Positions 60 to 56,642 of a stretch of DNA of 64,000 nt are shown one piece after another; the stretch's first letter is position 1, and each line of letters opens with the position of its first letter. The DNA lies in NCBI RefSeq assembly GCF_003334355.1, contig NZ_QOWP01000008.1. The stretch is one strand, 5' to 3'. The position numbers were made by a program, and so were the translations under genes. The notes beneath the pieces are model-generated. The model worked only from the letters and a program-made list of their open reading frames with translations, did no database searches and was not told where the DNA came from. The stretch is from Escherichia coli. Lineage in GTDB: Bacteria; Pseudomonadota; Gammaproteobacteria; Enterobacterales; Enterobacteriaceae.

Positions 60-290
60 AAATTGTTAAAGAGCAGTGCCGCTTCGCTTTTTCTCAGCGG
101 CGCGGGGTGTGCATAATACGCTTTCCCGCTACAGAGTCAAGCATTTATTTTTGCTTTCTCTGCCGGAGTTCTCAGGAGAACCCCGCTGACCCGGCGGCGT
201 GTTTGCCGTTGTTCCGTGTCAGTGGTGGCGCATTATAGGGAGTTATTCCGGCCTGACAAGAGGAAATTTAAAATAATTTTCTGACCGCGC
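60..290 (-). promoter_or_regulatory. rRNA operon tandem promoters P1 and P2 with UP element and boxA antiterminator, transcribing leftward out of the window (rrnC-type given the yieP neighbour)
   Basis: Reverse complement of ~221-290 reads gcgcggtcagaaaattattttaaatttcctcTTGTCAggccggaataactcccTATAATgcgccaccact, which is the classical rrn P1 with its UP element. Reverse complement of ~103-140 gives TTGACT-17-TATTAT (P2). Reverse complement of ~63-75 is tgctctttaacaa (boxA). The 16S gene body is not in the window. Confidence 0.85.
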
Positions 291-8554: not shown

Positions 8555-10423
8555 TTAGATTTCGACCTGAGTACCCAGTTCGATAACCCTGTTTGGCGGG
8601 ATTTCAAATTGATCTGGTGCACGCAGCGCATTACGTTGCAGCAGCAAGTACAGCTTGCCGCGCAGACGCAAATACCACGGGCGTTTGCCGAGGATCAACG
8701 ACTCATGCGACATAAAGAAGGAGGTTTCCATCATCCGGCAACTTAATCCTTCCAGACCGCAGCGGTGGAAAACTTCTTCTACGTTTGGCGTTTCTCGCCA
8801 ACCATAACTTGCCACCACGCGCCAGAAAGTGGGCGACAGTTGTTCAATCTGTACCCGACGGACGTTATGGACATATGGAGCGTCTTCGGTGCGCAGAGTT
8901 AACAGAATCACCCGCTCATGCAATACCTTGTTATGTTTAAGGTTATGCATCAGCGCAAAGGGAATGACGTTGATTGCACGCGACATATACACCGCGGTCC
9001 CGGGCACGCGAACAGGCGGTGATTTCTCCAGCGAAGCAATCATCGCTTCCAGAGAGTTACCATGTTCATGCATCCGCCGCAGCAAGCGGAAACGCTCGCT
9101 CTTCCAGGTGGTCATCACGATAAACATCACAGTACCGAGGCTCAATGGCAACCAGCCGCCGGAGAGCAGTTTATCGAGGTTAGCGGTGAACAATGGAATA
9201 TCGACACAAAGGAAAGCAATCAGGATCAGCGCAACAAAATACTTATTCCAGTGCCAGTTCTGACGTGCCACGGTAGTCGAGAGAATAGACGTCAGCACCA
9301 TGGTTCCGGTCACCGCAATCCCGTACGCCGCCGCCAGGTTGCTGGAGTGCTCAAAGCTGACAATCACAATCACGACCGCGACATAGAGCATCCAGTTCAC
9401 AAACGGAATATAGATTTGCCCTGACTCCATTTCGGAGGTGTGAATAATGCGCATCGGCGACAAATATCCCAGACGTACCGCCTGACGCGTCAATGAAAAG
9501 ACGCCAGAGATAACCGCCTGCGAGGCGATTACCGTCGCCAGTGCGGCGATGATCAGCAGCGGGATCAGCGCCCAGTCCGGTGCCAAAAGGAAGAACGGGT
9601 TCTTAATCGCTTCCGGGTTCTTTAACAACAGCGCTCCCTGGCCGAAGTAATTAAGAGTTAAGGAAGGTAATACGACAGTGAACCACGCCAGACGAATAGG
9701 GAACTTACCAAAGTGTCCCATATCAGCATACAGCGCCTCGACCCCCGTAATCGACAGCACCACTGCCCCTAATGCAATAAAAGAAACCGTTTTGTATTCA
9801 AGGAAGAAATGCACCGCCCACATAGGATTCAGCGCATGCAGCACTTCCGGGTTAGCAATAATGCTACGTAACCCCAGTCCTGCCAGAATCAAAAACCAGG
9901 TCAGCATGATCGGCGCAAACAGCTTACCGACCATAGCCGTGCCATGCTTTTGAATCATAAATAATAAAGTGAGAACGATAATTGAGAGGGGAACTATCCA
10001 GGTATCCAGCTGCGGGGCGACGATTTCCAGACCTTCAATGGCTGACATCACCGAAATAGCGGGTGTTATGACGACTTCACCATAGAAAAAGCTGCCGCCG
10101 ATTAGCCCCATAATCACCAGCATTGATGTGGTTCGCGCCGACGTATTACGCCCGGCAAGCGACATCAACGTCAGGATCCCCCCCTCACCGGCGTTATCTG
10201 CCCGCATCACGAAGGTGAGATATTTAATGGAAACCACAAAGATTAGCAGCCAGAAGATCAGCGATAAAAAGCCAAACACGGCATCGCGTTCAACGCCAAA
10301 ACCAAACTGGCCGGACAAACATTCACGAAGTGTATATAACGGGCTGGTACCAATATCGCCGTAGACAACTCCAATCGCCGCGAGGGTAATCGCGGGCAAT
10401 GATTGCTTATTATCAGTGCTCAT
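8555..10423 (-). CDS. kup: Low-affinity K+ uptake transporter Kup (TrkD)
   Basis: 622 aa, ATG start; multi-TM N-terminal domain plus cytoplasmic C-terminal domain; recognised as Kup. Confidence 0.95.
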
Positions 10424-10645
10424 AGACTAGTCTTTCGTTGAAATATGAAATGTGTGCTTAGTCCCTTGGCCCACAAAAAAGCGCACAGTATGCACGATTA
10501 ACGGCAAAATCGTACTCCTAAATGCGGCCACATTAACCTGGCTCAAAGAAAAATACCCCCCCTTTGAGACTATTTTAGCCACCAGCAAGAAACGTCTATA
10601 CTCGCAATTTACGCAGAACTTTTGACGAAAGGACGCCACTTCATT

Positions 10646-12142: not shown

Positions 12143-13587
12143 CGCTGGATACGCTTAATGTGATGCTGGCCGTCAGCGAAGAGGGATTGATCGAAGAGAT
12201 GATCATCGCGCTGCTGGCCTCACCGCAGCTGGCAGTCTTCTTTGAAAAATTCCCACGCCTGAAGGCAGCAATCACTGATGATGTTCCCCGCTGGCGTGAG
12301 GCGCTGCGCAGTCGGCTGAAAGATGCCCGAGTCCCGCCAGAACTCACCGAAGAGGTGATGTGCTATCAGCAAAGCCAGCTCCTCTCCACGCCGCAGTTTA
12401 TTGTGCAGCTACCACAGATCCTGGACTTACTGCATCGTCTGAATTCCCCATGGGCAGAACAAGCCCGACAGTTGGTTGATGCTAACAGCGCGATCACTTC
12501 AGCGTTACACACACTTTTTCTCCAGCGTTGGCGTTTAAGTCTGATCGTGCAAGCAACGACGTTAAATCAACAGCTATTAGAAGAAGAACGCGAACAACTG
12601 TTAAGTGAAGTTCAGGAACGCATGACGCTGAGCGGACAACTTGAACCGATTCTCGCAGATAACAATACCGCAGCTGGTCGTCTGTGGGATATGAGCGCCG
12701 GCCAGCTTAAACGTGGCGACTATCAGTTGATTGTGAAATACGGTGAATTTCTTAACGAACAGCCGGAACTGAAACGCCTGGCAGAGCAGCTGGGGCGTTC
12801 TCGGGAAGCCAAATCAATACCGCGCAACGATGCGCAGATGGAAACCTTCCGCACCATGGTGCGCGAACCGGCGACGGTTCCTGAGCAGGTTGATGGTCTG
12901 CAACAAAGCGATGATATTTTACGTCTCCTGCCGCCAGAACTGGCGACACTAGGGATAACGGAACTGGAGTATGAGTTTTACCGTCGGCTGGTGGAAAAAC
13001 AGTTGCTCACCTATCGCCTGCACGGTGAGTCGTGGCGTGAAAAAGTGATCGAACGTCCGGTGGTACATAAAGATTACGATGAACAGCCGCGCGGGCCGTT
13101 TATTGTCTGTGTGGATACTTCCGGCTCAATGGGCGGCTTTAATGAACAGTGTGCGAAAGCGTTCTGCCTGGCCTTGATGCGCATTGCTCTCGCTGAAAAC
13201 CGGCGCTGCTATATTATGCTATTTTCCACCGAGATCGTCCGTTATGAGCTTTCAGGCCCACAAGGCATCGAACAAGCAATCCGTTTTTTAAGCCAGCAGT
13301 TTCGTGGCGGCACCGATCTTGCCAGTTGTTTTCGCGCCATTATGGAACGCTTGCAAAGCAGGGAATGGTTTGATGCCGATGCGGTGGTGATTTCTGATTT
13401 TATCGCTCAGCGGTTGCCTGACGACGTGACGAGTAAAGTGAAAGAGCTGCAGCGGGTACATCAGCATCGCTTTCATGCCGTGGCGATGTCGGCACACGGC
13501 AAACCCGGCATCATGCGCATTTTCGATCATATCTGGCGCTTTGATACCGGGATGCGAAGCCGCCTGCTCAGACGCTGGCGGCGATAA
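12136..13587 (+). CDS. viaA: VWA-domain protein ViaA (RavA partner)
   Basis: 483 aa; C-terminal VWA/MIDAS motif (DTSGSM); start overlaps the ravA stop by 7 nt. Confidence 0.9.
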
Positions 13588-13591
13588 ATTA

Positions 13592-14584
13592 TTACAGCAG
13601 AGAAGGGACGCTCTCGCGAACAGCAGCTGGCCATACTCCACACTGAACCTGGCCGATATGCGGCAGTTGCAGCAGCAGCATAGTCAAACGAGACTGGCCG
13701 ATACCGCCGCCGATGGTCTGCGGCATTTCACCGCGCAGCAGCGCCTGATGCCACTCCAGCTCCAGGCGATCTTCGTCACCGGTCAGCGCCAGTTGATGCT
13801 TCAGCGTGTCGGCATCTACACGGATCCCCATGGAGGAAAGCTCAAACGCATCTTCCAGTACCGGGTTCCACACCAGAATATCGCCGTTCAGACCCGCATG
13901 GCCCAGCTCTGACGGGGTGCTCCAGTCATCATAATCCGGTGCGCGCACGTCGTGGCGATGACCATCGCTCAGCTTGCCGCCAATCCCGACAAGGAATACC
14001 GCGCCAAGATCTTTCGCTATCGCCCGCTCACGCCCTTTGGCATCGAGATCCGGATAACGAGACAGTAACTCCTGGCTGTGTACGAAGTGGATCTGATCCG
14101 GCAGGAACGGTGCCAGGCCAAACTCTTCGCTAACCGCAGCTTCGGTTGCTTTAATTCCCGCCCAGATCGCCTCTACCGTGCTTTTCAGAGTCGAGAATTG
14201 ACGCTCACCGTCGCCCATTACGCGTTCCCAGTCCCACTGGTCAACATAGACCGAGTGCAACGGAGAAAGACGGTCTTCATCGGGGCGAAGGGCTTTCATG
14301 TGCGTGTACAGCCCTTCGCCCGCGCTGAAGTCGTGTTGCCCTAAGGTCTGACGTTTCCACTTCGCCAGTGAATGAACCACTTCGAACTGGGCATCAGGCA
14401 GAGCTTTCACTTTTACCTGCACCGCTTTTTCACAGCCCGACAAGTTATCCTGCGTGCCATCCCCCACACGGCTAAGAATCGGCGCCTGGACTTCGATCAG
14501 CCCCAGACGTTCTTCCAGTTGGCGAGAAAAGTGAGATTTCACGAAGCTAATTTGGCGTTGTTTGGCAATGTAAGCGGTTTTCAT
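13592..14584 (-). CDS. asnA: Aspartate-ammonia ligase (asparagine synthetase A) AsnA
   Basis: 330 aa; recognised as AsnA; divergent from asnC. Confidence 0.95.
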
Positions 14585-14735
14585 TTTTTATACTCCTGCG
14601 TCCTGTTGCTTATGATTAAGCAACAAAAACCGACACACATGCAATAATCATTCAATAAAAAGCCTAACACACTTTTGATTCATTAAAAAAGAAGGCTAAA
14701 ATAGAATGAATCATCAATCTGCATAAGAAAATCCT

Positions 14736-15194
14736 ATGGAAAATTATCTGATCGACAATCTGGACCGTGGCATCCTGGAAGCATTAATGGGCAATGCGCG
14801 CACCGCTTACGCCGAACTGGCGAAACAATTTGGCGTCAGTCCGGGGACGATTCACGTTCGAGTAGAGAAAATGAAGCAGGCGGGGATCATTACCGGGGCG
14901 CGTATTGATGTCAGCCCGAAGCAGCTCGGTTATGACGTAGGCTGCTTTATCGGCATTATATTAAAGAGCGCCAAAGACTACCCTTCCGCGCTGGCAAAGC
15001 TGGAAAGCCTTGATGAAGTCACTGAAGCCTATTACACAACCGGCCACTACAGCATCTTTATAAAAGTGATGTGCCGTTCGATCGACGCTCTCCAGCATGT
15101 ACTTATCAACAAGATCCAAACAATTGATGAAATTCAGTCCACCGAGACATTGATCGTCCTGCAAAACCCGATCATGCGTACCATCAAGCCATAA
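14736..15194 (+). CDS. asnC: Lrp/AsnC-family transcriptional regulator AsnC
   Basis: 152 aa; N-terminal HTH and C-terminal RAM domain; recognised as AsnC. Confidence 0.9.
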   Translation: MENYLIDNLDRGILEALMGNARTAYAELAKQFGVSPGTIHVRVEKMKQAGIITGARIDVSPKQLGYDVGCFIGIILKSAKDYPSALAKLESLDEVTEAYYTTGHYSIFIKVMCRSIDALQHVLINKIQTIDEIQSTETLIVLQNPIMRTIKP

Positions 15195-15283
15195 TCGGCT
15201 TTTTTAATCCCATACTTTTCCACAGGTAGATCCCAACGCGTTCACAGCGTACAATACGCCACTCTTAATAAAGGTGGCGGTTT

Positions 15284-15727
15284 ATGGCAGATATCACTCT
15301 TATCAGCGGCAGCACCCTCGGCGGTGCCGAATATGTAGCAGAACACCTGGCTGAAAAGCTGGAAGAGGCGGGTTTTACCACCGAAACGCTGCACGGTCCG
15401 CTGTTGGAAGATTTATCTGCCTCGGGGATCTGGCTGATTATCAGCTCCACCCACGGTGCCGGAGATATTCCGGACAACCTTTCTCCTTTCTATGAAGCAT
15501 TGCAGGAACAGAAGCCCGATCTTTCTGCGGTCCGCTTTGGCGCAATCGGTATTGGTAGTCGTGAATATGACACCTTTTGTGGGGCTATCGATAAACTCGA
15601 GGCAGAACTCAAAAATTCCGGTGCAAAACAGACAGGCGAAACACTGAAGATCAACATTCTTGATCACGACATTCCGGAAGATCCGGCAGAAGAATGGCTG
15701 GGATCGTGGATTAATTTACTCAAATAA
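15284..15727 (+). CDS. mioC: Flavodoxin-like FMN-binding protein MioC
   Basis: 147 aa flavodoxin fold; adjacent to oriC; recognised as MioC. Confidence 0.9.
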   Translation: MADITLISGSTLGGAEYVAEHLAEKLEEAGFTTETLHGPLLEDLSASGIWLIISSTHGAGDIPDNLSPFYEALQEQKPDLSAVRFGAIGIGSREYDTFCGAIDKLEAELKNSGAKQTGETLKINILDHDIPEDPAEEWLGSWINLLK

Positions 15728-15744
15728 GTATACAGATCGTGCGA

Positions 15745-16000
15745 TCTACTGTGGATAACTCTGTCAGGAAGCTTGGATCAACCGGTAGTTATCCAAAGAA
15801 CAACCGTTGTTCAGTTTTTGAGTTGTGTATAACCCCTCATTCTGATCCCAGCTTATACGGTCCAGGATCACCGATCATTCACAGTTAATGATCCTTTCCA
15901 GGTTGTTGATCTTAAAAGCAGGATCCTTGTTATCCACAGGGCAGTGCGATCCTAATAAGAGATCACAATAGAACAGATCTCTAAATAAATAGATCTTCTT
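15745..16000. other. oriC: Chromosomal replication origin oriC (DnaA boxes R4 to R1, AT-rich 13-mer DNA unwinding element, dense GATC sites)
   Basis: Seen in sequence: tgtggataa (R4) at ~15750-15758, ttatccaca (R1) at ~15930-15938 and ttgtgtataa (R2-like) at ~15823-15832. The three 13-mers GATCTCTTATTAG, GATCTGTTCTATT and GATCTATTTATTT occur as reverse complements at ~15952-15995. The segment is densely populated with GATC sites. Confidence 0.92.
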
Positions 16001-16105
16001 TTTAATACCCAGGATCCCAGGTCTTTCTCAAGCCGACAAAGTTGAGTAGAATCCACGGCCCGGGCTTCAATCCATTTTCATACCGCGTTATGCGAGGCAA
16101 TCACC

Positions 16106-17995
16106 ATGTTTTATCCGGATCCTTTTGACGTCATCATCATTGGCGGGGGTCATGCAGGCACCGAGGCCGCGATGGCCGCGGCGCGTATGGGTCAACAGAC
16201 TCTGCTTTTGACACACAATATCGACACTCTGGGGCAGATGAGCTGCAACCCGGCGATCGGCGGTATTGGGAAGGGACATCTGGTAAAAGAAGTGGATGCA
16301 CTCGGCGGTCTGATGGCGAAAGCGATCGATCAAGCGGGTATCCAGTTTAGGATACTAAACGCAAGCAAAGGACCGGCGGTTCGCGCTACCCGAGCTCAGG
16401 CGGATCGTGTGCTCTACCGTCAGGCGGTACGTACGGCGCTGGAGAACCAACCGAACCTGATGATCTTCCAGCAGGCGGTTGAAGATCTTATTGTCGAAAA
16501 CGATCGCGTGGTCGGTGCTGTTACCCAAATGGGACTGAAGTTCCGTGCCAAAGCCGTCGTGCTCACCGTTGGGACATTCCTCGACGGTAAAATTCATATC
16601 GGTCTGGATAATTACAGCGGTGGCCGTGCTGGTGATCCGCCGTCCATTCCGCTTTCTCGCCGTTTGCGTGAACTGCCGCTGCGCGTTGGTCGTCTGAAAA
16701 CCGGGACACCACCGCGTATTGATGCTCGAACTATCGACTTTAGTGTGCTGGCGCAACAGCATGGCGATAACCCAATGCCGGTATTCTCGTTTATGGGCAA
16801 TGCGTCCCAGCATCCCCAGCAGGTGCCGTGTTATATCACTCATACCAACGAGAAAACCCATGATGTGATCCGCAGTAACCTCGATCGTAGCCCAATGTAT
16901 GCAGGGGTGATCGAAGGTGTCGGCCCACGCTACTGCCCGTCGATCGAAGACAAAGTCATGCGCTTCGCCGACAGAAATCAGCATCAGATCTTCCTTGAAC
17001 CGGAAGGACTGACCTCTAACGAAATTTATCCGAACGGTATCTCCACCAGCCTGCCGTTCGATGTGCAGATGCAAATCGTCCGCTCTATGCAGGGGATGGA
17101 AAACGCGAAGATCGTGCGTCCGGGTTATGCCATTGAGTATGACTTCTTCGATCCTCGCGACCTGAAACCGACGCTGGAGAGCAAGTTTATCCAGGGGCTG
17201 TTCTTTGCTGGTCAGATTAACGGCACTACCGGTTACGAAGAAGCCGCTGCGCAAGGTTTACTGGCCGGTCTTAACGCTGCCCGTCTGTCTGCTGACAAAG
17301 AAGGTTGGGCTCCGGCGCGTTCTCAGGCGTATCTCGGCGTACTGGTTGATGACCTGTGCACTTTAGGAACCAAAGAACCGTATCGTATGTTTACCTCGCG
17401 CGCAGAATATCGTCTGATGCTGCGCGAAGATAATGCGGATCTGCGTTTGACTGAAATCGGTCGTGAACTGGGCCTGGTGGATGACGAACGTTGGGCGCGC
17501 TTTAACGAGAAACTTGAGAATATCGAGCGTGAGCGTCAGCGTCTGAAATCGACCTGGGTAACCCCGTCGGCGGAAGCTGCAGCCGAAGTGAATGCTCACC
17601 TGACTGCGCCGCTTTCCCGTGAAGCCAGTGGTGAAGATCTGCTGCGTCGTCCGGAAATGACTTATGAAAAATTAACCACGCTGACGCCGTTTGCCCCTGC
17701 GTTGACAGACGAACAGGCGGCGGAACAGGTTGAGATTCAGGTTAAATACGAAGGTTATATCGCGCGCCAGCAAGATGAGATCGAAAAGCAGCTGCGTAAC
17801 GAGAACACCCTGCTACCCGCGACACTGGATTACCGCCAGGTATCCGGTCTTTCTAACGAAGTGATCGCCAAACTTAACGATCACAAACCGGCCTCTATCG
17901 GCCAGGCTTCACGTATTTCTGGCGTCACGCCTGCGGCCATCTCCATTCTGCTGGTGTGGCTGAAAAAACAGGGTATGCTGCGTCGTAGCGCATAA
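16106..17995 (+). CDS. mnmG: tRNA uridine 5-carboxymethylaminomethyl modification enzyme MnmG (GidA)
   Basis: 629 aa; N-terminal FAD-binding GXGXXG (IIGGGHAG); recognised as GidA/MnmG. Confidence 0.95.
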
Positions 17996-26238: not shown

Positions 26239-26536
26239 ACGCGTGATCCGTCCTGAAGAGCGTTCACATAGATCCTGCTGATATAAAACACCCCTGTTTT
26301 CCCGTTTATTCATTGATCGAAATAAGAGCAAAAACATCCACCTGACGCTTAAATGAAGGTACTGCCTTAATTTTCTGCAGACAAAAGGCGTGACGATGGT
26401 CGAAAATGGCACTTTCGTCAGCGGGGATAATCCGTTATTGAACAATTTATCCTCTGTCCATTTCACGATGAAAAAAATGTAGTTTTTTCAAGGTGAAGCG
26501 GTTTAAATTCGTTCTCAAATTACAGTCAGGACGCGT

Positions 26537-27907
26537 ATGTTGAATAATGCTATGAGCGTAGTGATCCTTGCCGCAGGCAAAGGCACGCGCATGTATTCCG
26601 ATCTTCCGAAAGTGCTGCATACCCTTGCCGGGAAAGCGATGGTTCAGCATGTCATTGATGCTGCGAATGAATTAGGCGCAGCGCACGTTCACCTGGTGTA
26701 CGGTCACGGCGGCGATCTGCTTAAACAGGCGCTGAAAGACGACAACCTTAACTGGGTGCTTCAGGCAGAGCAGCTGGGTACGGGTCATGCAATGCAGCAG
26801 GCCGCACCTTTCTTTGCCGATGATGAAGACATTTTAATGCTCTACGGCGACGTGCCGCTGATCTCTGTCGAAACACTCCAGCGCCTGCGTGATGCTAAAC
26901 CGCAGGGTGGCATTGGTCTGCTGACGGTGAAACTGGATGATCCGACCGGTTATGGACGTATCACCCGTGAAAATGGCAAAGTTACCGGCATTATTGAGCA
27001 CAAAGATGCCACCGACGAGCAGCGTCAGATTCAGGAGATCAACACCGGCATTCTGATCGCTAACGGCGCAGATATGAAACGCTGGCTGGCGAAGCTGACC
27101 AACAATAATGCTCAGGGCGAATACTACATCACCGACATTATTGCGCTGGCGTATCAGGAAGGGCGTGAAATCGTCGCCGTTCATCCGCAACGTTTAAGCG
27201 AAGTAGAAGGTGTGAATAACCGCCTGCAACTCTCCCGTCTGGAGCGCGTTTACCAGTCCGAACAGGCTGAAAAACTGCTGTTAGCAGGCGTTATGCTGCG
27301 CGATCCGGCGCGTTTTGATCTGCGCGGTACGCTTACTCACGGGCGCGATGTTGAAATTGATACTAACGTTATCATCGAGGGCAACGTGACTCTCGGTCAT
27401 CGCGTGAAAATCGGCACCGGTTGCGTGATTAAAAACAGCGTGATTGGCGATGATTGCGAAATCAGTCCGTATACCGTTGTGGAAGACGCGAATCTGGCAG
27501 CGGCCTGTACTATTGGCCCGTTTGCCCGTCTGCGTCCTGGTGCTGAGTTGCTGGAAGGTGCACACGTTGGTAACTTCGTTGAGATGAAAAAAGCGCGTCT
27601 GGGTAAAGGCTCGAAAGCCGGGCATCTGACTTACCTGGGCGATGCGGAAATTGGCGATAACGTTAACATCGGCGCGGGAACAATTACCTGCAACTACGAT
27701 GGTGCGAATAAATTTAAGACCATTATCGGCGACGATGTGTTTGTCGGTTCCGACACTCAGCTGGTGGCCCCGGTAACAGTAGGCAAAGGCGCGACCATTG
27801 CTGCGGGTACAACTGTGACGCGTAATGTCGGCGAAAATGCATTAGCTATCAGCCGTGTGCCGCAGACTCAGAAAGAAGGCTGGCGTCGTCCGGTAAAGAA
27901 AAAGTAA
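26537..27907 (+). CDS. glmU: Bifunctional GlcNAc-1-P uridyltransferase / GlcN-1-P acetyltransferase GlmU
   Basis: 456 aa; N-terminal nucleotidyltransferase motif (LAAGKGTRM) and C-terminal hexapeptide-repeat acetyltransferase domain. Confidence 0.95.
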
Positions 27908-35079: not shown

Positions 35080-43060
<7,981 letters not shown>

Positions 43061-43136
43061 AACATAAGGCCGGATGTATGAATTACGCTCCGGCCTGTTC
43101 TCCAACGGTTAATTACAAATAGATAAAGTATCCCGC

Positions 43137-43610
43137 TTAACTTAAAGAGTCTGTTTCAGGACATGAAATATCCAATCCGGGCAGACGGGTAATGATTTTG
43201 CTCATCACCACACCTGCCAGCAATGCAGGAATGATGCGGACAACGAGACTGTCACCAGAAAGAATGTTTTCAAACAACTCCGAGGAAGCCATGCCCTTAA
43301 TATGTACAATAACTGCACAATAGATCTCGGTGATAACGACGCCACCTATGCCACCAGCCAGACAACGATAATTTTTCTGTGACCCGATCTTTTCCGGCAG
43401 ACAGGCGACCATCACGCCGGTTAACAATGCAGGAATAGCTCCCGTAGTAATCGACAATAAGAGAAACAATGGAAGTACCTGTATTATTACCAAAAGAACC
43501 AGCGGTTCTTTTGCGAAGAATATGTAGAGGACAAGAAACAGAACACCAATTAACGGTCCTAAAACCGCAAAATAAAGTCCGTGATGTATTACCCGACGTG
43601 AAACAGACAT
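43137..43610 (-). CDS. cbrB: Inner-membrane protein CbrB (YieI)
   Basis: 157 aa, 4-5 predicted TM helices; recognised as CbrB. Confidence 0.8.
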   Translation of the reverse strand: MSVSRRVIHHGLYFAVLGPLIGVLFLVLYIFFAKEPLVLLVIIQVLPLFLLLSITTGAIPALLTGVMVACLPEKIGSQKNYRCLAGGIGGVVITEIYCAVIVHIKGMASSELFENILSGDSLVVRIIPALLAGVVMSKIITRLPGLDISCPETDSLS

Positions 43611-43676
43611 ATCAAACTCCCTTTACTTACCTTTGAGCGCCAATTTAAGCGGGGTAAGTGAAGGGAGTGTGAAGAA

Positions 43677-44342
43677 CTATGCCGTAATATCCCAACCACG
43701 CGCTTTCCACAGTTCCGGTAACTGCGAAAGATGGGTAAAGGTGGTGACTTTCGGGTGAACGATCGGCTTATTGTGCGGGTCAGCGCAGAAGTAAAACACT
43801 TCCATTCCGGCATCTATCCCTGATTGAGCGCCGGCGCTGGAGTCATCGACCAGAATGCAGTTTTCAACGTTCACATTCATCGCTTTTGCCGCATGGAACA
43901 TTAATGCCGGATCGGGCTTCCAACGCTGGATATCGTAGCCGCTGAACAGTTTTTCCGGGAAGTAGTGCAGCATGTTGAGCTTACCCAGCGAATGCTGCAT
44001 TTTGCTGACCGGACCGTTAGAGACGACGCACATCGGCACGTTAATGCTCGCCAGCAATTCGTTCGCGCCTGCGATGTCCGCAAGTTCGGTATCAAACAGA
44101 CGTGCTACTTCTGCGCGGTAAACGTGCTCGGCATCGGCCTGGACCATCGTCACGCCCTGTTCTTTACTGATGATGTCGATGATTTCGTAGAGTTTTACGC
44201 CTTTAAAACGGGTAAAAATCTCCTCCAGGTCAACGTTAATGCCAAATTCCCTGAACATCGTGACATAGGCGCGAGAGCAAATGACCTCGCTATCGACCAG
44301 CGTACCGTCGCAGTCGAAAAATACCGCTTCTATCTGGGACAT
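43677..44342 (-). CDS. yieH: HAD-superfamily phosphatase YieH
   Basis: 221 aa; HAD motif I FFDCDGTLVDSE near the N-terminus; recognised. Confidence 0.88.
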   Translation of the reverse strand: MSQIEAVFFDCDGTLVDSEVICSRAYVTMFREFGINVDLEEIFTRFKGVKLYEIIDIISKEQGVTMVQADAEHVYRAEVARLFDTELADIAGANELLASINVPMCVVSNGPVSKMQHSLGKLNMLHYFPEKLFSGYDIQRWKPDPALMFHAAKAMNVNVENCILVDDSSAGAQSGIDAGMEVFYFCADPHNKPIVHPKVTTFTHLSQLPELWKARGWDITA

Positions 44343-44508
44343 GTCTTTCCTTTATCGTTAGTTTAACGTTTTCGTCATGCCAATTCACATGACGCAATCG
44401 TTGCCGTATAAGCAAATACAATGAAAAAAAGTTATCTTCAGCCGTCCATATTGTCTCATTTTGGTATACGATAGCGACGGATTTTCCCTCCTTGTTCGGA
44501 AATAGATA

Positions 44509-45846
44509 ATGAGTCAACAACACACAACCCAGGCTTCTGGCCAGGGGATGCTGGAACGCGTGTTTAAACTGCGCGAACATGGCACGACGGCACGGACCGA
44601 AGTGATCGCCGGTTTTACCACCTTCCTGACGATGGTTTACATCGTTTTTGTTAACCCGCAAATTCTTGGCGTTGCTGGCATGGATACCAGCGCCGTCTTC
44701 GTTACTACCTGTCTGATTGCTGCATTCGGCAGTATTATGATGGGACTGTTTGCTAACCTGCCAGTTGCACTGGCACCCGCTATGGGCCTGAATGCGTTCT
44801 TCGCTTTTGTGGTTGTGCAGGCGATGGGCTTGCCGTGGCAAGTCGGGATGGGCGCAATCTTCTGGGGGGCGATTGGTCTGCTGTTACTGACGATTTTCCG
44901 CGTTCGCTACTGGATGATTGCCAACATTCCGGTAAGTCTGCGTGTGGGCATCACCAGCGGTATCGGTCTGTTCATTGGTATGATGGGACTGAAGAATGCA
45001 GGTGTGATTGTCGCTAACCCGGAAACGCTGGTCAGCATCGGTAACCTGACTTCTCACAGCGTGCTGCTGGGGATCCTCGGCTTCTTCATCATCGCTATTC
45101 TGGCCTCGCGCAACATTCACGCGGCGGTGCTGGTTTCTATCGTGGTGACGACGCTGCTGGGCTGGATGCTGGGTGATGTCCACTACAATGGCATCGTTTC
45201 TGCGCCGCCGAGCGTAATGACTGTCGTGGGCCATGTAGATTTAGCCGGGTCGTTTAACCTCGGGCTGGCAGGGGTGATTTTCTCTTTCATGCTGGTCAAC
45301 CTGTTTGACTCCTCCGGTACGCTGATTGGCGTGACCGATAAAGCAGGCCTGGCGGATGAGAAGGGTAAATTCCCGCGCATGAAGCAGGCGCTGTATGTCG
45401 ACAGTATCTCTTCCGTGACCGGTTCGTTTATCGGTACTTCTTCCGTTACGGCTTATATTGAGTCCTCTTCCGGCGTATCGGTTGGCGGTCGTACCGGTCT
45501 GACGGCAGTGGTTGTTGGTCTGCTGTTCCTGCTGGTTATCTTTCTGTCGCCGCTGGCGGGGATGGTGCCAGGCTACGCTGCAGCTGGTGCGCTGATTTAC
45601 GTTGGCGTGCTGATGACTTCCAGTCTGGCACGCGTGAACTGGCAGGATCTTACTGAATCTGTTCCGGCGTTTATTACCGCCGTGATGATGCCGTTCAGCT
45701 TCTCGATTACCGAAGGTATCGCGCTGGGCTTTATCTCCTACTGCGTGATGAAAATCGGTACCGGACGTCTGCGTGATCTAAGCCCGTGCGTAATCATCGT
45801 TGCGCTGCTGTTTATCCTGAAGATTGTCTTTATCGACGCTCACTAA
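44509..45846 (+). CDS. adeP: Adenine permease AdeP (YieG/PurP), NCS2 family
   Basis: 445 aa polytopic transporter; recognised. Confidence 0.9.
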   Translation: MSQQHTTQASGQGMLERVFKLREHGTTARTEVIAGFTTFLTMVYIVFVNPQILGVAGMDTSAVFVTTCLIAAFGSIMMGLFANLPVALAPAMGLNAFFAFVVVQAMGLPWQVGMGAIFWGAIGLLLLTIFRVRYWMIANIPVSLRVGITSGIGLFIGMMGLKNAGVIVANPETLVSIGNLTSHSVLLGILGFFIIAILASRNIHAAVLVSIVVTTLLGWMLGDVHYNGIVSAPPSVMTVVGHVDLAGSFNLGLAGVIFSFMLVNLFDSSGTLIGVTDKAGLADEKGKFPRMKQALYVDSISSVTGSFIGTSSVTAYIESSSGVSVGGRTGLTAVVVGLLFLLVIFLSPLAGMVPGYAAAGALIYVGVLMTSSLARVNWQDLTESVPAFITAVMMPFSFSITEGIALGFISYCVMKIGTGRLRDLSPCVIIVALLFILKIVFIDAH

Positions 45847-45899
45847 AATCGATAGCGCGTTAAAAACCCGCCATGCATGATTGCTGGCGGGTTTTTTAT

Positions 45900-46466
45900 T
45901 TAGATCTTAACTCGCTGAATAAACTCACCAAATGCGGTCAATTGCCCGGTCAGGTGGTCCAGCGTACCCTGATCAATCACTTCTCCGGTTTGCGGATCAA
46001 CTTTGTTCTGAATCACGCCGCCCATAAATTCCGGCTTGTTCATCACCATTGCATCGAGGAAAACCAGAATCTGGCGCAGGTGATACTGACAGCGCGCGCC
46101 GCCAATCACGCCCATTGAGCTGGTCTGAATCAATACCGGTTTACCGGCCAGCGGTTGATCCGGCAGGCGGGAAAGCCAGTCGATGGCATTTTTCAGCCCA
46201 CCCGGTATCGAGTAGTTATATTCCGGCGTGACGATCACCACACCGTCAGCCTGACGGATCTGTTCCGCCAGAGCTTCAACCGTTGCTGGAAAACCTTCTT
46301 CCTGCTGTACGTCAGCGTCATACAAGGGAATGTCGGCAATGGATGGTAACGCATTGACTTCCATGCTCGCCGGAGCAATTTTCGGCAGGGTACGTGCAAC
46401 CATGCCATTAAATGAGCCTTTGCGCAGGCTCCCCAGTAACGTAACCACCTGCAATTTTTCAGACAT
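45900..46466 (-). CDS. chrR: NADPH-dependent FMN reductase / chromate reductase ChrR (YieF)
   Basis: 188 aa; flavodoxin-like NADPH-dependent FMN reductase motif (LLGSLRKGSFN); recognised. Confidence 0.9.
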   Translation of the reverse strand: MSEKLQVVTLLGSLRKGSFNGMVARTLPKIAPASMEVNALPSIADIPLYDADVQQEEGFPATVEALAEQIRQADGVVIVTPEYNYSIPGGLKNAIDWLSRLPDQPLAGKPVLIQTSSMGVIGGARCQYHLRQILVFLDAMVMNKPEFMGGVIQNKVDPQTGEVIDQGTLDHLTGQLTAFGEFIQRVKI

Positions 46467-46487
46467 AATGACTCCTGTGGTTGTCTA

Positions 46488-47249
46488 TCAATTTGGCGAA
46501 AAAGACTTCACGGTAGAGAGCTGGGCAAAACGCATCATCCGGCTGGTAGGATTGTTGGCGCGGCTGTGAATATCCGGCAGGCTTTTCCAGCTGTGTTTGC
46601 CATCTAACTCCCAGACACTGAGCTTTTCAATCGCGGGCGTGACCGCCACGGACCACACTAGCACGTCCTCCGCGTCGCATAACGCTTCTACATGATTTAC
46701 ATGAGCACAGTTCAGGCGTCCGGCAATGGGCAGCAGCTGCAGATCGCGCGGATCGTCATTCAAAACATCACCGGTTAGTTTTAGCACGCTTCGGCGCAGC
46801 GTGATGAGCTGCGCCCGCGCTTCGTTAGGATCGTTTTGTTTACTGATCCATAGCGATTCATTGCTGGAAAAGGTGTGGTTATCGGGCGCGTGTGGGCTAT
46901 GAAACCCGCGCGTCGCACGCTGTAGTTCCATATCGAGGCCACATTCACCTTCGGTTGTTAACGCCACGCCAACCATATTCCCGGCATAGGAAATAGAAAA
47001 CGAAGGCAAATTTTTATCACTGAAAACCGGTTTACCTTTCGGCAGGGTGACGATTTCCGGCAATTCGCCAATGCCATACAGCATGAACATCAGTTCTGCG
47101 AGTAAACCTCTGGACGCCAGAAAACGGCTTTGACGATGAGGGGGAATGTTTCGGGCTTCTTGATGACACTGGGAGGGGAGACGAACAGAAATCAGATGTC
47201 CTTCCGTTAAAATCCCTCGGGCAAAGTGAGTCGCCATTTTTCGCTCCAT
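46488..47249 (-). CDS. yieE: YieE, putative 4'-phosphopantetheinyl transferase family protein
   Basis: ORF-track 253 aa; a start 4 codons in (MATHF) is also possible; gene-order position between chrR and yidZ. Confidence 0.7.
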   Translation of the reverse strand: MERKMATHFARGILTEGHLISVRLPSQCHQEARNIPPHRQSRFLASRGLLAELMFMLYGIGELPEIVTLPKGKPVFSDKNLPSFSISYAGNMVGVALTTEGECGLDMELQRATRGFHSPHAPDNHTFSSNESLWISKQNDPNEARAQLITLRRSVLKLTGDVLNDDPRDLQLLPIAGRLNCAHVNHVEALCDAEDVLVWSVAVTPAIEKLSVWELDGKHSWKSLPDIHSRANNPTSRMMRFAQLSTVKSFSPN

Positions 47250-47393
47250 GCTTAATGGTCCATTATGAATATAAGAGTAATCATTTACTGGAATGATGGA
47301 CAGACTAAAGCGGCTAAAAGTTCGATTCAGACAAGCTTATTACAACTTTTTTACATTTTATTGTGAAATTGGGTCGCGTTTCATACGATTCGG

Positions 47394-48353
47394 TTATGCC
47401 ATCGACGCGTAAAGGTTTTTAATGGTTTCCCGTAACCAGACGATCTTCGGATTATGGCTGTTCCGTTTATGCCACAGCAGGGTAAAAGGAACTTCCAGCT
47501 TTTTTTGCTGGCTTTCGTCAAACGGGAGAGGAAGAGCAACCAACGGCAGTTGATGGAGTTGATTGTAGTACTGACAGTAGCGCGGCGCGGTCGCCAGTAG
47601 CAGATTGTCGGGTTGCGCTGCCATAAACAGTGACTGCTCAAATTCCGGCAGGCTCATAGCAATCGTGCGTTCGCGCCCCAGCTCCTGTAACACATTGTCC
47701 AGCGCCCAGGTGTCGCTCTGTTCCCAGCAAATGCTGATATGCGGATAACGTAAAAAGGTGTCCAGATTCCACGTTTCATGCAGTGCCGGATGATCTTTGC
47801 GTAACCAGACGCAGGGTACATCACTAAACAGCACTTCATAATCAATGGCTAACGGTAGCGAGCTTAACAGCTCCCGCGAGCGAGGATGGCTTTCGCGACC
47901 GGAAAAACCAATATCCACTTCACCACGAGTAATGGCATCTAAGGAATCGTAATCCCAGTTACGTAGTTTGATGGTCGCCTGCGGGTAACGTTGGTAGATC
48001 CGTTTCGACAGCGCATTAAGCATGATCATCATCAGCGGCGATTCCGCCGCCAACTCAAACTTCAGGCCGCGCGGTGTCTGGTGGTGCGGTTTATCCAGCA
48101 GCAGATTGCTCATTTGCATCCATTCCGCCAGATTTTGCTCCATGCTGACCATTAGCGGTGTGGGCGACAGGCCCAGCGGTGAGTTCACAAAGAGCGGGTC
48201 GTCAAACCACGCTCTTAACTTTGCCAGCGACTTACTCACCGCTGAAGGGGTCACGTTCATCCGCTTCGCCGCTTTGGTCACGCTGCGCTCCTGCATCAGC
48301 AGTTGCAGACAGAGCAGCAGATTGAGATCAAGCGTGGTGATGGATTTCTTCAT
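47394..48353 (-). CDS. yidZ: LysR-family transcriptional regulator YidZ
   Basis: ORF-track 322 aa trimmed to [40 protein letters not shown] (319 aa), an LysR-type HTH. Confidence 0.88.
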
Positions 48354-49503
48354 GAGCGGCAACGGGGCGTCCAGGCGCGACGAACATAATCAGCAACAGG
48401 CTCACTATGCTACAGGCAATCAGAATCCCGATCAGCATATTCCATGCGCCGATACCAACCACCGCTGCCAGCCAAATCCACAGTGACGAACCGCAAACCT
48501 GCGCAATACCTAAGGTCGAGCTGGCTACGCCCGCGCGTAATGAAAATGGTCCTAACGCCTGACTCATCGCTACGCCAAAACCTACCGAGAAACCGGCGCA
48601 AATCAGCGTGATACCAAACAGAGAAACCGCATGGGAAGGTGAAACGGCAAGGGTGATCCCCGCTGCAAGGAATAACACCTGCGAGGTGATCATCAACGTA
48701 CGTGGCTTAAAAATTCCCAGCGCAAATGGCGTGGAGAATGAAACGGTCATGCTGACGCCAGCGGTCAACGCCATAATGGTGGCGTATTCTCCGCGCTCAA
48801 AACCCATGATTTCCATCAGCAATACCGGCGATGTATTGACGAAAGTGAGGATCACCGAAACGCTGAGGGTGGTGATAACAACACGGCTGAGGAAAAACCG
48901 ATTAAGCAGCGACTCGCTATTTTCTCGTGGTTTGTCCGAAGCAGCGGGGGACGCTGGGCGCGTTTCTTTTAAAATAAACAAAGACAACATCAGTACCGCG
49001 ATGCCCATCATTGCCATCGCCCAGAACAGACTCTGCCACGGGAATTTAAGCATAATCAGATGTCCGAGCACTGGCGCTAACACCGGAATGATGCAGGTAA
49101 TACCGTTGAGTAATGACAGCACTTTAGCCCGACGTCGATCATCCAGCGTGTCGCGCAAAATGGCGAACGCCACTACGTAACAACAGCCTGCGCCCAACCC
49201 CTGTAGAAATCGGCCTGCAAGAAATAACGTGCTGGTTTCAGCCAGTGAACAGAACACCGAGGCAATAATAAATAGCGCCGCGCCGGGTATGGCGACCGGC
49301 TTTCTCCCTGAACGATCGGCCACTTTACCGGCAAATAACATCGCAGCTGCCATCCCCGCCAGATATACGGAGAACGCAATATGCAACTGCGCTTCGCTGG
49401 CATTGAGATCGGCGGTGATGCGCGGTAAACCAACGAGGTACATATCAATCCCGGCGGGATAAAGTAAAACCAGGGCAAAACTACAAATTAAAAAGCGGGA
49501 CAT
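48328..49503 (-). CDS. mdtL: MFS multidrug efflux transporter MdtL (YidY)
   Basis: 391 aa, 12-TM MFS; recognised; 3' end overlaps the yidZ start. Confidence 0.9.
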
Positions 49504-49635
49504 GGGCTAAAGCGTCCTGATAGTAAGGTGACGCAAAGCATACGTGGTGAAGGAGAATCAGGCGAGTTGCCATTTGGACAAAAGAGATTTCCTGACAGGC
49601 AAGAAGCCAGCGAAATGGCTGGCTTCTTGAAGGGA

Positions 49636-50883
49636 TCAGCCAAATTTAGGTAACACGTTAAAGACGTTACCGAACCAGCATAAAATTACGGTTATACCAA
49701 AGAGAATGACAATCGCCGGAATAAGATTGCCGCCCCAGACCGTGAACATCTGATTGGGAAACTTCTTGCGAGCTTTGATTGCAAGCACTGCGGGAATAAT
49801 GACCGCCCAGATGGTGGCGCACAGCCCGGCACCGCCGATCCCGTAAATAAAGCCGTTCGGGAAGATCAGATACAACAACGCAGGTGGCAGGAAGGTTAAC
49901 AGCACGGTTTTGAAACGCCCGCCGTGGGAGTTATCAATCTTAAACAGGTCCGCCAGATAATCGAACAACCCCAGCGTGACACCAAAGAACGAACTGGCAA
50001 CAGCTAAGTTAGAGAACACCAGCAGGCAAAACTCGATAATGCCGTGCTGTTTGGTGCCGAGGAACGATTTCACCAGCGAATCAACGTTGCCGCCTGAGGA
50101 GATTATCGCCTTAAAGCTTTCGCGCGGAATATTCCCCATCGTGCAATAGAGCCAGAAGAGATAAATCACCAGCGCCAGCAGCGAACCAAATACCACGCTT
50201 TTGATTAACTTATCTTTGCGTTTTCCATAGCAAATAATCAGGCTGGGAATATTGCCGTGGAAACCAAATGACGCCAGACACACCGGCAAAGCCATAAAAA
50301 TATACGGGAAGTAAGACGTTCCCGCAGTGGTGCTGGTGGCATCGCGCAGGATGGAGTAATCGACCTGGAAGAAGAAAGAACCAAACACGATCACAAAGGA
50401 GATAATCTTCAGCCCGAGGAACAATGAGGTAATGCGACTGGCGGCTAACGAACTTATCCACAATACGCTGGCAACGAAAATGGCTGTGCAGATCCCGACA
50501 ATACGTGGATTAGCGTGATAGCCCAAATTCATTGATATCGTTTCACTAATGATCGCACCATTAGCAGAGATATAGGCATAAGTGAGGATATAGAGAACGA
50601 AGGCAACGGTAATACCGCTGATAATGTTCCAGGTGTTACCGATTAAATCTTTGGTGATGGTGTTAAAACTGGAGCCGACAGGATAATTTAAATTTGCTTC
50701 TAATAACAATAACCCGGAATGAAGCATTGAAAACCAGGCAATGATAAGGATAAAGGCACCCCAGAAAAACCAGGCACCGGCAAGATCAACAGGTAAAGCA
50801 AACATACCTCCACCAATTACTGTACCTGCTATAACCATAACACCCCAAAATGCAGAGTGCTTTTTTTCAGCTTGATCAGTCAT
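49636..50883 (-). CDS. tnaB: Low-affinity tryptophan permease TnaB
   Basis: 415 aa aromatic amino-acid permease; downstream of tnaA in the same operon. Confidence 0.93.
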   Translation of the reverse strand: MTDQAEKKHSAFWGVMVIAGTVIGGGMFALPVDLAGAWFFWGAFILIIAWFSMLHSGLLLLEANLNYPVGSSFNTITKDLIGNTWNIISGITVAFVLYILTYAYISANGAIISETISMNLGYHANPRIVGICTAIFVASVLWISSLAASRITSLFLGLKIISFVIVFGSFFFQVDYSILRDATSTTAGTSYFPYIFMALPVCLASFGFHGNIPSLIICYGKRKDKLIKSVVFGSLLALVIYLFWLYCTMGNIPRESFKAIISSGGNVDSLVKSFLGTKQHGIIEFCLLVFSNLAVASSFFGVTLGLFDYLADLFKIDNSHGGRFKTVLLTFLPPALLYLIFPNGFIYGIGGAGLCATIWAVIIPAVLAIKARKKFPNQMFTVWGGNLIPAIVILFGITVILCWFGNVFNVLPKFG

Positions 50884-50973
50884 GATGCCACCTTTAGAGG
50901 AAGGCTATTTTTGTTATTGAGGATGTAGGGTAAGAGAGTGGCTAACATCCTTATAGCCACTCTGTAGTATTAA

Positions 50974-52389
50974 TTAAACTTCTTTCAGTTTTGCGGTGAA
51001 GTGACGCAATACTTTTGGTTCGTAGGTAAAGGTTAATCCTTTAATATTCGCCGCGTTCTCTTTCACATGTTTAAAGGCTTCAATAATGAAGTCCATATGT
51101 GTTTGAGTATATGTTGCGCGCGGAATGGTTAAACGCAGCAGTTCAGCCGGGCATGGCAGTTGTTTACCGGTTTTCGGATCGCGGCCTAACAGGAAAGAGC
51201 CAATTTCTACCGCACGGATACCGGCGACTTTATACAGCTCGCACGCCAGCGCCTGTGCCGGGAACTGGTCTGCCGGGATATGCGGCAGCAGTTTACCGGC
51301 ATCAACGAATGCCGCGTGACCGCCCGCCTGCTGGCAGACAACGCCAATCTCTTCCAGACCATCGACCAGATACTGTACCTGCGCGATACGATAAGCCAGC
51401 CAGTCGAGATTCATGCCGTCATACAGACCTACCGCCAGACGCTCCATCGCGCCGCCTTCCAGGCCGCCATATGTCGGGAAGCCTTCCTGCACCACGCAAA
51501 GGGTTCTGCACTCGGTGTACACATCAAAGAAGCTGTCGTCTTTCATGCACAGCAAGCCGCCCATCGGCACCATCGCATCTTTCTTGGCGGACATCGCCAG
51601 CATATCGGCATATTTGTAGGTTTCGCGGGTGATCTGCTCGATGGTCCAGTCTTTGTATTCTGCTTCACGCTGCTTGATGAAATAGGCGTTTTCAGCAAAG
51701 CGTGCGGAGTCCATTACCACCGGAATATCGTATTTCTTCGCGATGCTGTACATCGCTTTTAAGTTTGCCAGTGAAACCGGCTGACCACCTGCAGAGTTAC
51801 TGGTGATGGTTGCAACGATATACGGCACGTTATTCGGGCCAACTTCTTCAATACCGCGTTCTAATCCTTCGAGGTCAAAGTTGCCTTTAAAGTCGTAACG
51901 CACGCCCGTATCGAAGGCTTCTTTGATATAGACGTTACGCACGGTACAGCCGTTAATCTGGCTATGGCCCTGCGTGGTATCAAAGAAATAGTTAGAGAAT
52001 GCCACCATTTTGCTGCGATCCAGGCCTTTTTCCTGCTCGCGTTTTTTAATCAGTACCGGAATATAGATTTGCTCTGCGCCACGGCCCTGGTGAGTCGGAA
52101 TAGTGTATTGATAACCAAAGATATTTTTCACTGACTCGGCTAACGCATAGTAGCTGCGGCTGCCGCTGTAGGCTTCGTCGCCGCGCATCATCGCGGCCTG
52201 CATACTCTGCGTCACCGCCCCGGTGCCGCTGTCGGTCAGTAAATCGATAAACACATCTTCGCTATCCAGCAGGAACGGGTTCATACCGGATTTAATAATT
52301 GCTTCTTCACGATAAGCGCGAGTAGTACGTTTTACTGGCTCAATAACACGAATGCGGAACGGTTCAGGGAGATGTTTAAAGTTTTCCAT
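50974..52389 (-). CDS. tnaA: Tryptophanase TnaA
   Basis: ORF-track 476 aa trimmed to [18 protein letters not shown] (471 aa); PLP-dependent beta-eliminating lyase. Confidence 0.95.
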
Positions 52390-52609
52390 TACATAATCCT
52401 TCATTTATTTTAATTACAGTGATCCCTGTGAATATTACATCTGCAATATCCATTAATTCGCCATGTATATATACAAGCACCATCATTTACTAAAATAAGT
52501 AAATAAACGAGAGATGGCCTTTGCAAAAGGCAAAATTAAGATATAGCAAACTAATCGTTCACATTGAATCTAATCGGTTTGGCTCTGGTGATGGCTACAG
52601 AAGGGTAAA

Positions 52610-52684
52610 TTAAGGGCGGTGATCGACAATCTTATTGTCGATATTGAACCATTTTGAGGTCACACATATATGTAAGATATTCAT
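52610..52684 (-). CDS. tnaC: tna operon leader peptide TnaC (24 aa, MNILHICVTSKWFNIDNKIVDHRP)
   Basis: Reverse complement of ~52610-52684 encodes exactly the 24-aa TnaC peptide with the critical Trp12 and C-terminal Pro24 followed by a stop; not in the ORF track because under 60 aa. Confidence 0.9.
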   Translation of the reverse strand: MNILHICVTSKWFNIDNKIVDHRP

Positions 52685-52759
52685 AATGCACTTATCCTCG
52701 AAAGACACGAGGCTACAGTATAATACTCAAGAATTTTGTCTATTCTAAAATTGTTTAAA

Positions 52760-52775
52760 TGTGAATCGAATCACA
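52760..52775. promoter_or_regulatory. CRP binding site of the tna promoter
   Basis: tgtgaatcgaatcaca, a near-perfect TGTGA-N6-TCACA palindrome upstream of tnaC. Confidence 0.75.
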
Positions 52776-52926
52776 ATCGTTCGGGGAGCAATATTAAATG
52801 CTTTTTTTTAAGATTATAAATTACGTAAGAATTTTAATGTTTAAAAAAAGGGTTGAGGAATAATAGGAGTGCTAACAATGAAGCGAAGCCGCATCTGACA
52901 GTCAGAATACGGCTTCGTAAGCGCGG

Positions 52927-54291
52927 TTACTTACCAATACAGAAGCTGGAGAAAATCCGCCCCAGCAGGTCGTCTGAAGTAAATTCCCCGGTGATTTCGC
53001 TTAAGTTCTGCTGTGCCAGACGCAACTCTTCCGCCAGCAGTTCACCTGCCCAGGCTCCCAACAGTTGCGCTTTGCCCTGTTGTAGATGTTCCGCTGCCTG
53101 TTCCAGCGCCTGTAGGTGGCGACGACGCGCCAGGAAGCCGCCTTCCATGTTGGTGTCAAAGCCCATGCTCTGTTTGAGATGGTTACGCAGCACCTCCACG
53201 CCTTCACCTGTCCTTGCCGAGAGACGAATTAACGCGTGACCGTTCACTTCACTCATTCCCAGCGTTTCGCCGGTGATATCGGCTTTATTGCGCACCACGG
53301 TGATCGGCAGTTTCGCTGGCAGACGGGCGATAAATTCCGGCCAGATCTCTGCCGGATCCACGGCGTCTGTTGTGGTGCCATCGACCATAAACAGCACGCG
53401 GTCGGCCTGTTCAATTTCCTGCCACGCGCGCTCGATACCAATACGTTCCACTTCGTCACTGGCTTCACGTAGCCCAGCGGTATCGATGATATGCAGCGGC
53501 ATTCCGTCAATGTGGATATGCTCACGCAGCACGTCACGTGTGGTTCCGGCGATATCAGTTACGATTGCTGCTTCACGGCCCGCCAGCGCGTTTAACAGGC
53601 TCGATTTACCGGCGTTAGGACGTCCGGCAATCACCACCTTCATCCCTTCGCGCAACAAACTACCCTGACGTGCTTCAGCACGCACTGCATCGAGATCGGC
53701 AATCACGTCATTAAGCTGGGCTTCAATTTTGCCGTCGGAGAGGAAATCGATCTCTTCATCAGGGAAATCAATTGCCGCTTCGACGTAAATGCGCAAGTGG
53801 GTGAGGGCTTCTACCAGATGATTAACCCGTGCGGAGAATGCGCCTTGCAGCGAGTTAAGTGCCGAACGGGCCGCCTGTTCCGAACTGGCGTCGATAAGAT
53901 CGGCAATCGCCTCGGCCTGGGCTAAGTCAAGTTTATCGTTAAGAAACGCGCGTTCGGAAAACTCACCAGGGCGAGCAATCCGCAGGCCGGGAATGGTCAG
54001 AATGCGTTTTAACAGCAGGTCGAGGATCACCGGACCGCCATGACCTTGCAGTTCCAGCACATCTTCGCCGGTGAACGAGTTCGGGCCAGGGAACCATAGC
54101 GCAATCCCCTGATCGAGCACGCTGCCGTCGGCGTCTTTAAACGGAAGATAATCGGCGTAGCGCGGCTTAGGCAGTTTACCCAGCACGGTTTCGGCAACTT
54201 CACGGGCTTTGAAGCCGGAGATGCGCAGGATGCCAACGCCGCCACGTCCCGGAGGCGTGGCCTGGGCTACGATAGTGTCATTATCGCTCAT
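52927..54291 (-). CDS. mnmE: tRNA modification GTPase MnmE (TrmE)
   Basis: 454 aa; G-domain motifs ([13 protein letters not shown]) and C-terminal CIGK. Confidence 0.95.
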
Positions 54292-56043: not shown

Positions 56044-56045
56044 CG

Positions 56046-56626: not shown

Positions 56627-56642
56627 TCAGGGGTTAGCTTTA

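Follow-up and report, generated by a model that had tools for sequence, protein, structure and literature searches.

The textbook chromosomal replication origin oriC, complete and unrearranged, between mioC and mnmG in an Escherichia coli genome

Organization of the origin region

The window, that is, the whole 64-kb stretch of DNA analysed, spans yieP, the rbs genes, oriC and the atp, pst, bgl, tna, dnaA and gyrB genes. A complete oriC flanked by mioC and mnmG had been predicted in the interval 15745-16000, and every element named in the original prediction was found where it had been placed (Table 1). The interval covers the minimal oriC, for which we followed the published 245-bp size and element list (PMC5742627), but the AT-cluster runs to 16007, 7 nt past the end of the interval. 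The conventional orientation of oriC corresponds to the minus strand of the window, so that R4 adjoins mioC and the 13-mers adjoin mnmG. The gene mioC reads toward the origin, as predicted, from a position upstream of it on the plus strand. MioC scored 245 bits against an NCBIfam equivalog cut-off of 158, and MnmG 1017 bits against a cut-off of 525; the AsnC and RsmG ORFs likewise scored above their NCBIfam equivalog cut-offs.

Small ORFs of 20-49 aa overlap oriC on both strands; they were taken as mechanical by-products, since no annotated relative has coding sequence there. An Rfam scan detected no RNA family within or adjoining oriC. Elsewhere in the window, three families scored above the gathering threshold, all on the minus strand: the STnc410 sRNA (26296-26453) between atpC and glmU, the AsdA antisense RNA (57900-57980) inside dnaA, and ES036/CssrF (63457-63499) between gyrB and yidB.

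Table 1. Features of the mioC-oriC-mnmG region, in window coordinates
Feature	Position	Strand	Sequence	Basis and remarks
DnaA-like box, mioC promoter region	15216-15224		TTTTCCACA	Motif search
mioC	15284..15727	+		ORF, NCBIfam equivalog; transcribed toward and through oriC
Minimal oriC	15750..15995	-		Gapless K-12 alignment and located elements; DnaA box R4 to 13-mer L, ~245 bp
DnaA box R4	15750-15758	-	TTATCCACA	Perfect TTATNCACA match; high affinity
C1	15762-15770	-		Exact-string search; identical to K-12; right low-affinity array
I3	15773-15781	-		Exact-string search; identical to K-12; right low-affinity array
R3 (overlapping C2/C3)	15789-15797	-		Exact-string search; identical to K-12; right low-affinity array
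Fis-binding consensus GnnYAnnnnnTRnnC	15798..15812	.	GAACAACCGTTGTTC	Perfect match; between R2 and R3
Substitution	15805		G (K-12 A), conventional strand	Central N of the Fis site
DnaA box R2	15824-15832	-	TTATACACA	Perfect TTATNCACA match; Middle-DOR
I2	15842-15850	-		Exact-string search; left low-affinity array
I1	15853-15861	-		Exact-string search; left low-affinity array
tau2	15864-15872	-		Exact-string search; left low-affinity array
R5M	15875-15883	-		Exact-string search; left low-affinity array
tau1	15886..15894	-	GGATCATTA (conventional strand)	Identical to K-12; low-affinity DnaA box
IBS1, IHF-binding region (approximate)	15895..15920	.	Core ~TTGTTGATC	Inferred; includes the GATC at 15908
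Substitution	15920		T (K-12 G), conventional strand	9 nt from R1, between R1 and IBS1
DnaA box R1	15930-15938	+	TTATCCACA	Perfect TTATNCACA match; high affinity
13-mer R	15952-15964	-	GATCTCTTATTAG	Exact match, unique in 64 kb
TTATT motif within 13-mer R	15954-15958	-	TTATT	Motif search
ssDNA-DnaA motif, after 13-mer M	15965-15968	-	TTGT	Motif search
13-mer M	15967-15979	-	GATCTGTTCTATT	Exact match, unique in 64 kb
13-mer L	15983-15995	-	GATCTATTTATTT	Exact match, unique in 64 kb; contains a TTATT motif
AT-cluster	15996..16007	-	TATTAAAAAGAA	Exact match, unique in 64 kb; flanks the DUE just outside minimal oriC
Promoter-like element upstream of mnmG	16025-16052		TTCTCA-16-TAGAAT
mnmG (gidA)	16106..17995	+		ORF, NCBIfam equivalog; transcribed away from oriC

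DnaA boxes and low-affinity arrays

The DnaA boxes R1, R2 and R4, predicted to be intact together with the three 13-mers, are indeed perfect matches to TTATNCACA, and the 13-mers are exact. These boxes are three of the eight perfect matches present in the window, where 2.2 would be expected and none of 100 shuffles reached eight. Taken with their flanks, R1 and R4 are perfect inverted repeats of each other over 11 nt; such opposite orientation is what would be expected at the two ends of a DnaA-oligomerisation region. The distance from R1 is 97 nt to R2 and 171 nt to R4.

The left low-affinity array (15842..15883, minus strand) has 2-bp gaps between its boxes. The right array spans 15762..15797 (minus strand); the gaps within the arrays are 2 bp, and C1 is separated from R4 by 3 bp. 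For the individual 9-mers of the low-affinity boxes (R5M, tau1-2, I1-3, C1-3 and R3) we used the sequences that we take to be the accepted ones, and tau1 was putatively assigned with the help of the 2-bp spacing rule. A literature search for the exact 9-mers returned unrelated papers only; support for these sequences comes from their identity to K-12 and their conservation across species. The names, order and roles of the low-affinity boxes follow published accounts (PMC9198467; PMC10380432).

Duplex-unwinding element

The 13-mers L, M and R (consensus GATCTnTTnTTTT) and the AT-cluster are identical to those of K-12. The AT-cluster's sequence and its role as an auxiliary unwinding and DnaB-loading element were taken from PMC9198467. 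The A+T content of the 56 nt over the 13-mers and the AT-cluster is 77%, that of the window 49%; the block thus belongs to the top 0.27% of 56-nt windows and is the local peak for 15000-17000. Single-strand DnaA motifs of the form TT[A/G]T(T) were detected by motif search within 13-mers L and R and also between M and R; the TTGT and TTATT motifs are reported to be essential for ssDUE binding (PMC5742627). When the 13-mer consensus was relaxed to two or fewer mismatches, there was no window-wide enrichment (20 matches against 20.5 expected), and the loose count is thus not usable as a stand-alone statistic. The non-random signal is instead the presence of three tandem, co-oriented copies within 44 nt.

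IHF and Fis sites

The limits of IBS1 were set from the published footprint length (PMC5716108; PMC10380432) and from identity to K-12. The IHF footprint is 33 bp long and overlaps 7 bp of tau1 (PMC5716108), and a secondary IHF site, IBS2, has been reported to overlap R1 (PMC10380432). The strict IHF consensus TAANNNNTTGATW gave no match within two mismatches in the R1-R5M spacer, and the same holds for K-12, the sequence there being identical. Apart from base 15920 at its edge, the IHF region matches K-12, and within it the string AAGATCAA is conserved across species (column count, 104 other species). The Fis consensus was taken from PMC10380432, and the site at 15798-15812 fits it perfectly with either allele of position 15805.

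GATC sites

The window contains 342 GATC sites, one per 187 bp. The segment described beforehand as densely populated with GATC is so: 11 sites lie fully inside 15745-16000 where 1.37 are expected, an 8-fold excess (Poisson P = 2.3e-7), and the proposed comparison of 15740-16000 with the window average gave 12 sites. No other place in the window reaches this density, as the highest count in any 256-nt window, 12, occurs only at oriC and the best elsewhere is nine. Ten of the 11 sites fall in 15844-15995, over the DUE and Left-DOR, at successive spacings of 7-26 bp, and the remaining one is at 15776. This agrees with the distribution reported for oriC, with eleven GATC sites in the minimal origin and ten in the DUE and Left-DOR (PMC10380432; PMC5742627).

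The second-densest cluster, with nine sites in ~225 bp (57041-57263), is surpassed in count by oriC alone. A perfect TTATCCACA box (57172-57180, minus strand) lies inside this cluster, in the ysdD/rpmH-dnaA spacer, with dnaA itself at 57390-58793 on the plus strand; the arrangement matches the SeqA-/DnaA-regulated dnaA promoter region, ~41 kb from oriC. Four further perfect TTATNCACA boxes lie outside both oriC and the dnaA promoter, at 108-116 (-), 9439-9447 (-), 27211-27219 (-) and 50454-50462 (+), and one of them is a TTATCCACA box inside tnaB. Given that 2.2 matches are expected per 64 kb, some of these four may be chance matches.

Comparison with other E. coli genomes

A 411-bp region comprising the mioC end, oriC and the mnmG start was matched in 5425 of 5426 complete E. 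coli genomes, at 5485 places, all of them chromosomal and none on a plasmid, and was 100% identical in at least 15 complete genomes. One of the 5426 genomes gave no match, coverage was below 80% in 44, and some had two matching places; such cases may reflect splits at the record start, insertions or duplications.

The 64-kb window is colinear with K-12 positions 3941738-3877119, from yieP to yidB, with an identity of 99.4% over 1-43102 and 98.3% over 43121-64000. Divergence from K-12 is patchy, which suggests recombination tracts: 124 mismatches fall in 44-46 kb (44001-46000, yieH-adeP) and the 26-32 and 52-54 kb stretches are also divergent, while 18-26 kb and 54-64 kb show 0-2 mismatches per 2 kb. 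At 43102-43121, between yieK and cbrB, ~19 bp stand in place of ~634 bp of K-12, and the colicin E2 tolerance gene cbrC (K-12 3898022-3898609) is absent; this cbrC-less junction is common to 729 of the 5426 genomes. The 25-kb query 39001-64000 found a median of 35 places per genome and so contains a short dispersed repeat, probably of the REP type.

Among individual strains, OW1E2 aligned to the first 50 kb of the window without gaps (160 mismatches in 50000 positions) and with an identical origin, so that its gene table applies directly in window coordinates. Strain 720632 carries an IS4 between kup and ravA (13445-14773 of its record, corresponding to window ~10557-10568), which the window lacks. 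In PSS-12 an IS5 lies inside bglF (36373-37353 of its record; bglF at 36140-38017 in the window), whereas the bgl operon of the window is uninterrupted. Over 39-64 kb no genome is closer than PSS-12, yet this strain is not among the carriers of the 15920 allele described below.

Conservation across species

A 29-nt pattern running from the end of 13-mer R through box R1 was found exactly in at least 120 species, including Enterobacterales, Vibrio, Photobacterium, Colwellia and others. The proposed check of DnaA motif spacing gave the same distances in the window as in other species: R1-R2 of 97 nt and R1-R4 of 171 nt occur in 105 of 115 usable loci from Enterobacterales, Vibrionales and Alteromonadales (114 other species and the window itself). 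Conservation was scored by counting columns, without gaps, in 104 other species. The search pattern itself fixed R1, the GATC at 15948 and most of 13-mer R, so that these are conserved by construction; for R2 and R4 conservation is partly due to the filter. The mean top-base frequency was 0.80-0.92 for R5M, tau1, tau2, I1, I2 and R3 (0.84 for tau1), against 0.63 in unannotated spacer columns. More than 90% of species retain the GATC sites at 15961, 15908, 15890, 15866 and 15844.

Alternative readings and the two substitutions

Replication polarity points to the same position. The cumulative G-C curve of the window has its minimum at 16138, and GC skew changes from -0.032 left of oriC to +0.036 right of it, so that the switch coincides with the oriC site. 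To the right, the skew is +0.050 in 16-44 kb and +0.017 in 44-64 kb; the genes of 43137-57093 (cbrB through tnaAB, mnmE, yidC, rnpA and rpmH) are mostly on the minus strand, head-on to the rightward fork.

With a probability of about 97%, we read 15750-15995 (minus strand) as the functional chromosomal oriC of E. coli at its native locus, asnC-mioC-oriC-mnmG-rsmG-atp, with function assumed to be as in K-12; no real counter-evidence emerged. Could the cluster of short motifs (GATC, 9-mers and AT-rich 13-mers) have arisen by chance, without origin function? The unenriched loose 13-mer consensus would fit this reading, to which we give no credence: the GATC density (P = 2e-7) is a unique window maximum, eight perfect DnaA boxes, three of them in oriC, stand against 2.2 expected, the sequence is nearly base-for-base identical to the experimentally defined K-12 oriC (two substitutions), and the box spacing is the same in more than 100 species. 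The K-12 alignment, GATC density, box count and cross-species spacing together refute it. An ectopic, duplicated or plasmid-borne copy, such as a minichromosome or a cloned fragment, could draw on the few genomes in which two places match the oriC query (at most two per genome). The colinearity of the 64 kb with the K-12 chromosome, the gapless alignment to OW1E2 over 50 kb, the confinement of all 5485 matching places to chromosomes and the GC-skew switch at the site effectively refute this reading as well, leaving it a negligible probability.

The alignment of the whole mioC-mnmG spacer to the reference oriC of K-12 MG1655, a check suggested with the original prediction, revealed no indels and two substitutions, at 15805 and 15920. 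We saw neither missing 13-mers or DnaA boxes nor a rearranged origin, either of which would have contradicted the prediction. The 15805 allele is common, its 61-mer being exact in 1270 of the 5426 genomes, and the column varies freely across the 104 other species (G 45, A 44, C 13, T 2). A further alternative concerns position 15920: the oriC architecture would be intact but tuned, the G-to-T change altering how IHF binds or bends the DNA, or how it cooperates with R1, and shifting the timing of initiation. The allele is indeed rare, since no more than 37 of the 5426 genomes contain the window 61-mer exactly (strains 720632, OW1E2, SCU-316 and PE15 among these RefSeq complete genomes), against 4608 for the K-12 61-mer. 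At least 15 of the 37 carriers are also fully identical to the window over the 411-bp region. Judging from the published footprint (PMC5716108) and the position of tau1, the base would lie at about the R1-proximal edge of the 33-bp IHF footprint, and the reported IBS2 overlaps R1 nearby (PMC10380432). However, the 15920 column ranks with the least conserved in oriC, the 104 other species having G 38, C 39, T 17 and A 10 there, the change creates or destroys no GATC, DnaA box or spacing, the carriers come from many hosts and environments with no sign of defect, and oriC has the same SNP density against K-12 (2 in ~258 bp) as its flanks (16 per 2 kb). In the literature it is spacing that is stressed as most important here; inserting 1 bp between the DUE and R1 is enough to be deleterious (PMC5716108). 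We therefore consider a tuned origin very unlikely, and it is just as improbable that the T allele is a natural origin variant measurably changing IHF occupancy or initiation timing in its lineage. Given the freely varying columns, the unchanged GATC sites, boxes and spacing, and the flank-like SNP density, we read both substitutions as neutral polymorphisms, that at 15920 being probably harmless. The 15920 base is a minor natural polymorphism that could serve as a lineage marker.

Predicted function of the origin

For the oriC sites, direct observation covers sequence and position, spacing and orientation, conservation, and the statistical departure from chance; from the near-identity to the experimentally defined K-12 origin we infer that these sites would function as they do in K-12, including DnaA-dependent bidirectional initiation. 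The steps that follow are transferred to the window from established knowledge of oriC (PMC9198467; PMC5716108; PMC10380432). DnaA would occupy the high-affinity boxes R1, R2 and R4, and rising ATP-DnaA would cooperatively fill the two low-affinity arrays, which face in opposite directions: R5M-tau2-I1-I2 to the left and, beside R4, C3-C2-I3-C1 to the right. IHF is expected to bend the R1-R5M spacer, a step that Fis, bound between R2 and R3, would delay until displaced. The 13-mers M and R would melt, their T-rich strand, with the TTGT and TTATT motifs, being captured by R1- and R5M-bound DnaA, and DnaC would load two DnaB helicases (hexamers) with the assistance of 13-mer L and the AT-cluster. 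After firing, SeqA would bind the 11 hemimethylated GATC sites, so that the origin is sequestered and re-initiation blocked (PMC5742627). Transcription of mioC entering oriC from the R4 side and transcription of mnmG away from the DUE may modulate initiation.

The significance of the locus is that of an anchor only: it marks the window as the origin-proximal 64 kb of the E. coli chromosome. As such, oriC determines which way the fork passes through each gene of the window, and it accounts for the GC-skew switch as well as for the GATC clusters.

Comparison with known origins

The origin described here is already known: it is the textbook E. coli origin, complete and unrearranged, and adds nothing new on origins. 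That it would not be novel had been anticipated, and rightly so. Compared with the oriC of K-12 MG1655 (NC_000913.3), the window shares the order, orientation and spacing of the elements from mnmG to mioC. The 13-mers, the AT-cluster, R1, R2, R4, R5M, tau2, I1-I3, C1 and R3 are identical, as are all 11 GATC sites, the Fis consensus and the flanking genes. In the RefSeq record of K-12 the aligned stretch is annotated as oriC (3925744-3925975), between mnmG and mioC. This 'origin_of_replication' feature is 232 bp long and equivalent to window positions 15766-15997, starting at 13-mer L; it ends before R4 and hence omits one of the two high-affinity end boxes.

Beyond E. coli, the origin belongs with the gammaproteobacterial oriC family of Enterobacterales, Vibrio (oriCI), Photobacterium and Colwellia, with which it shares the pattern of 13-mer R and R1 and the box spacing. 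Genera of this family differ from one another in the spacers, in 13-mers L and M and in boxes C1 and I3, and the window carries the E. coli versions.
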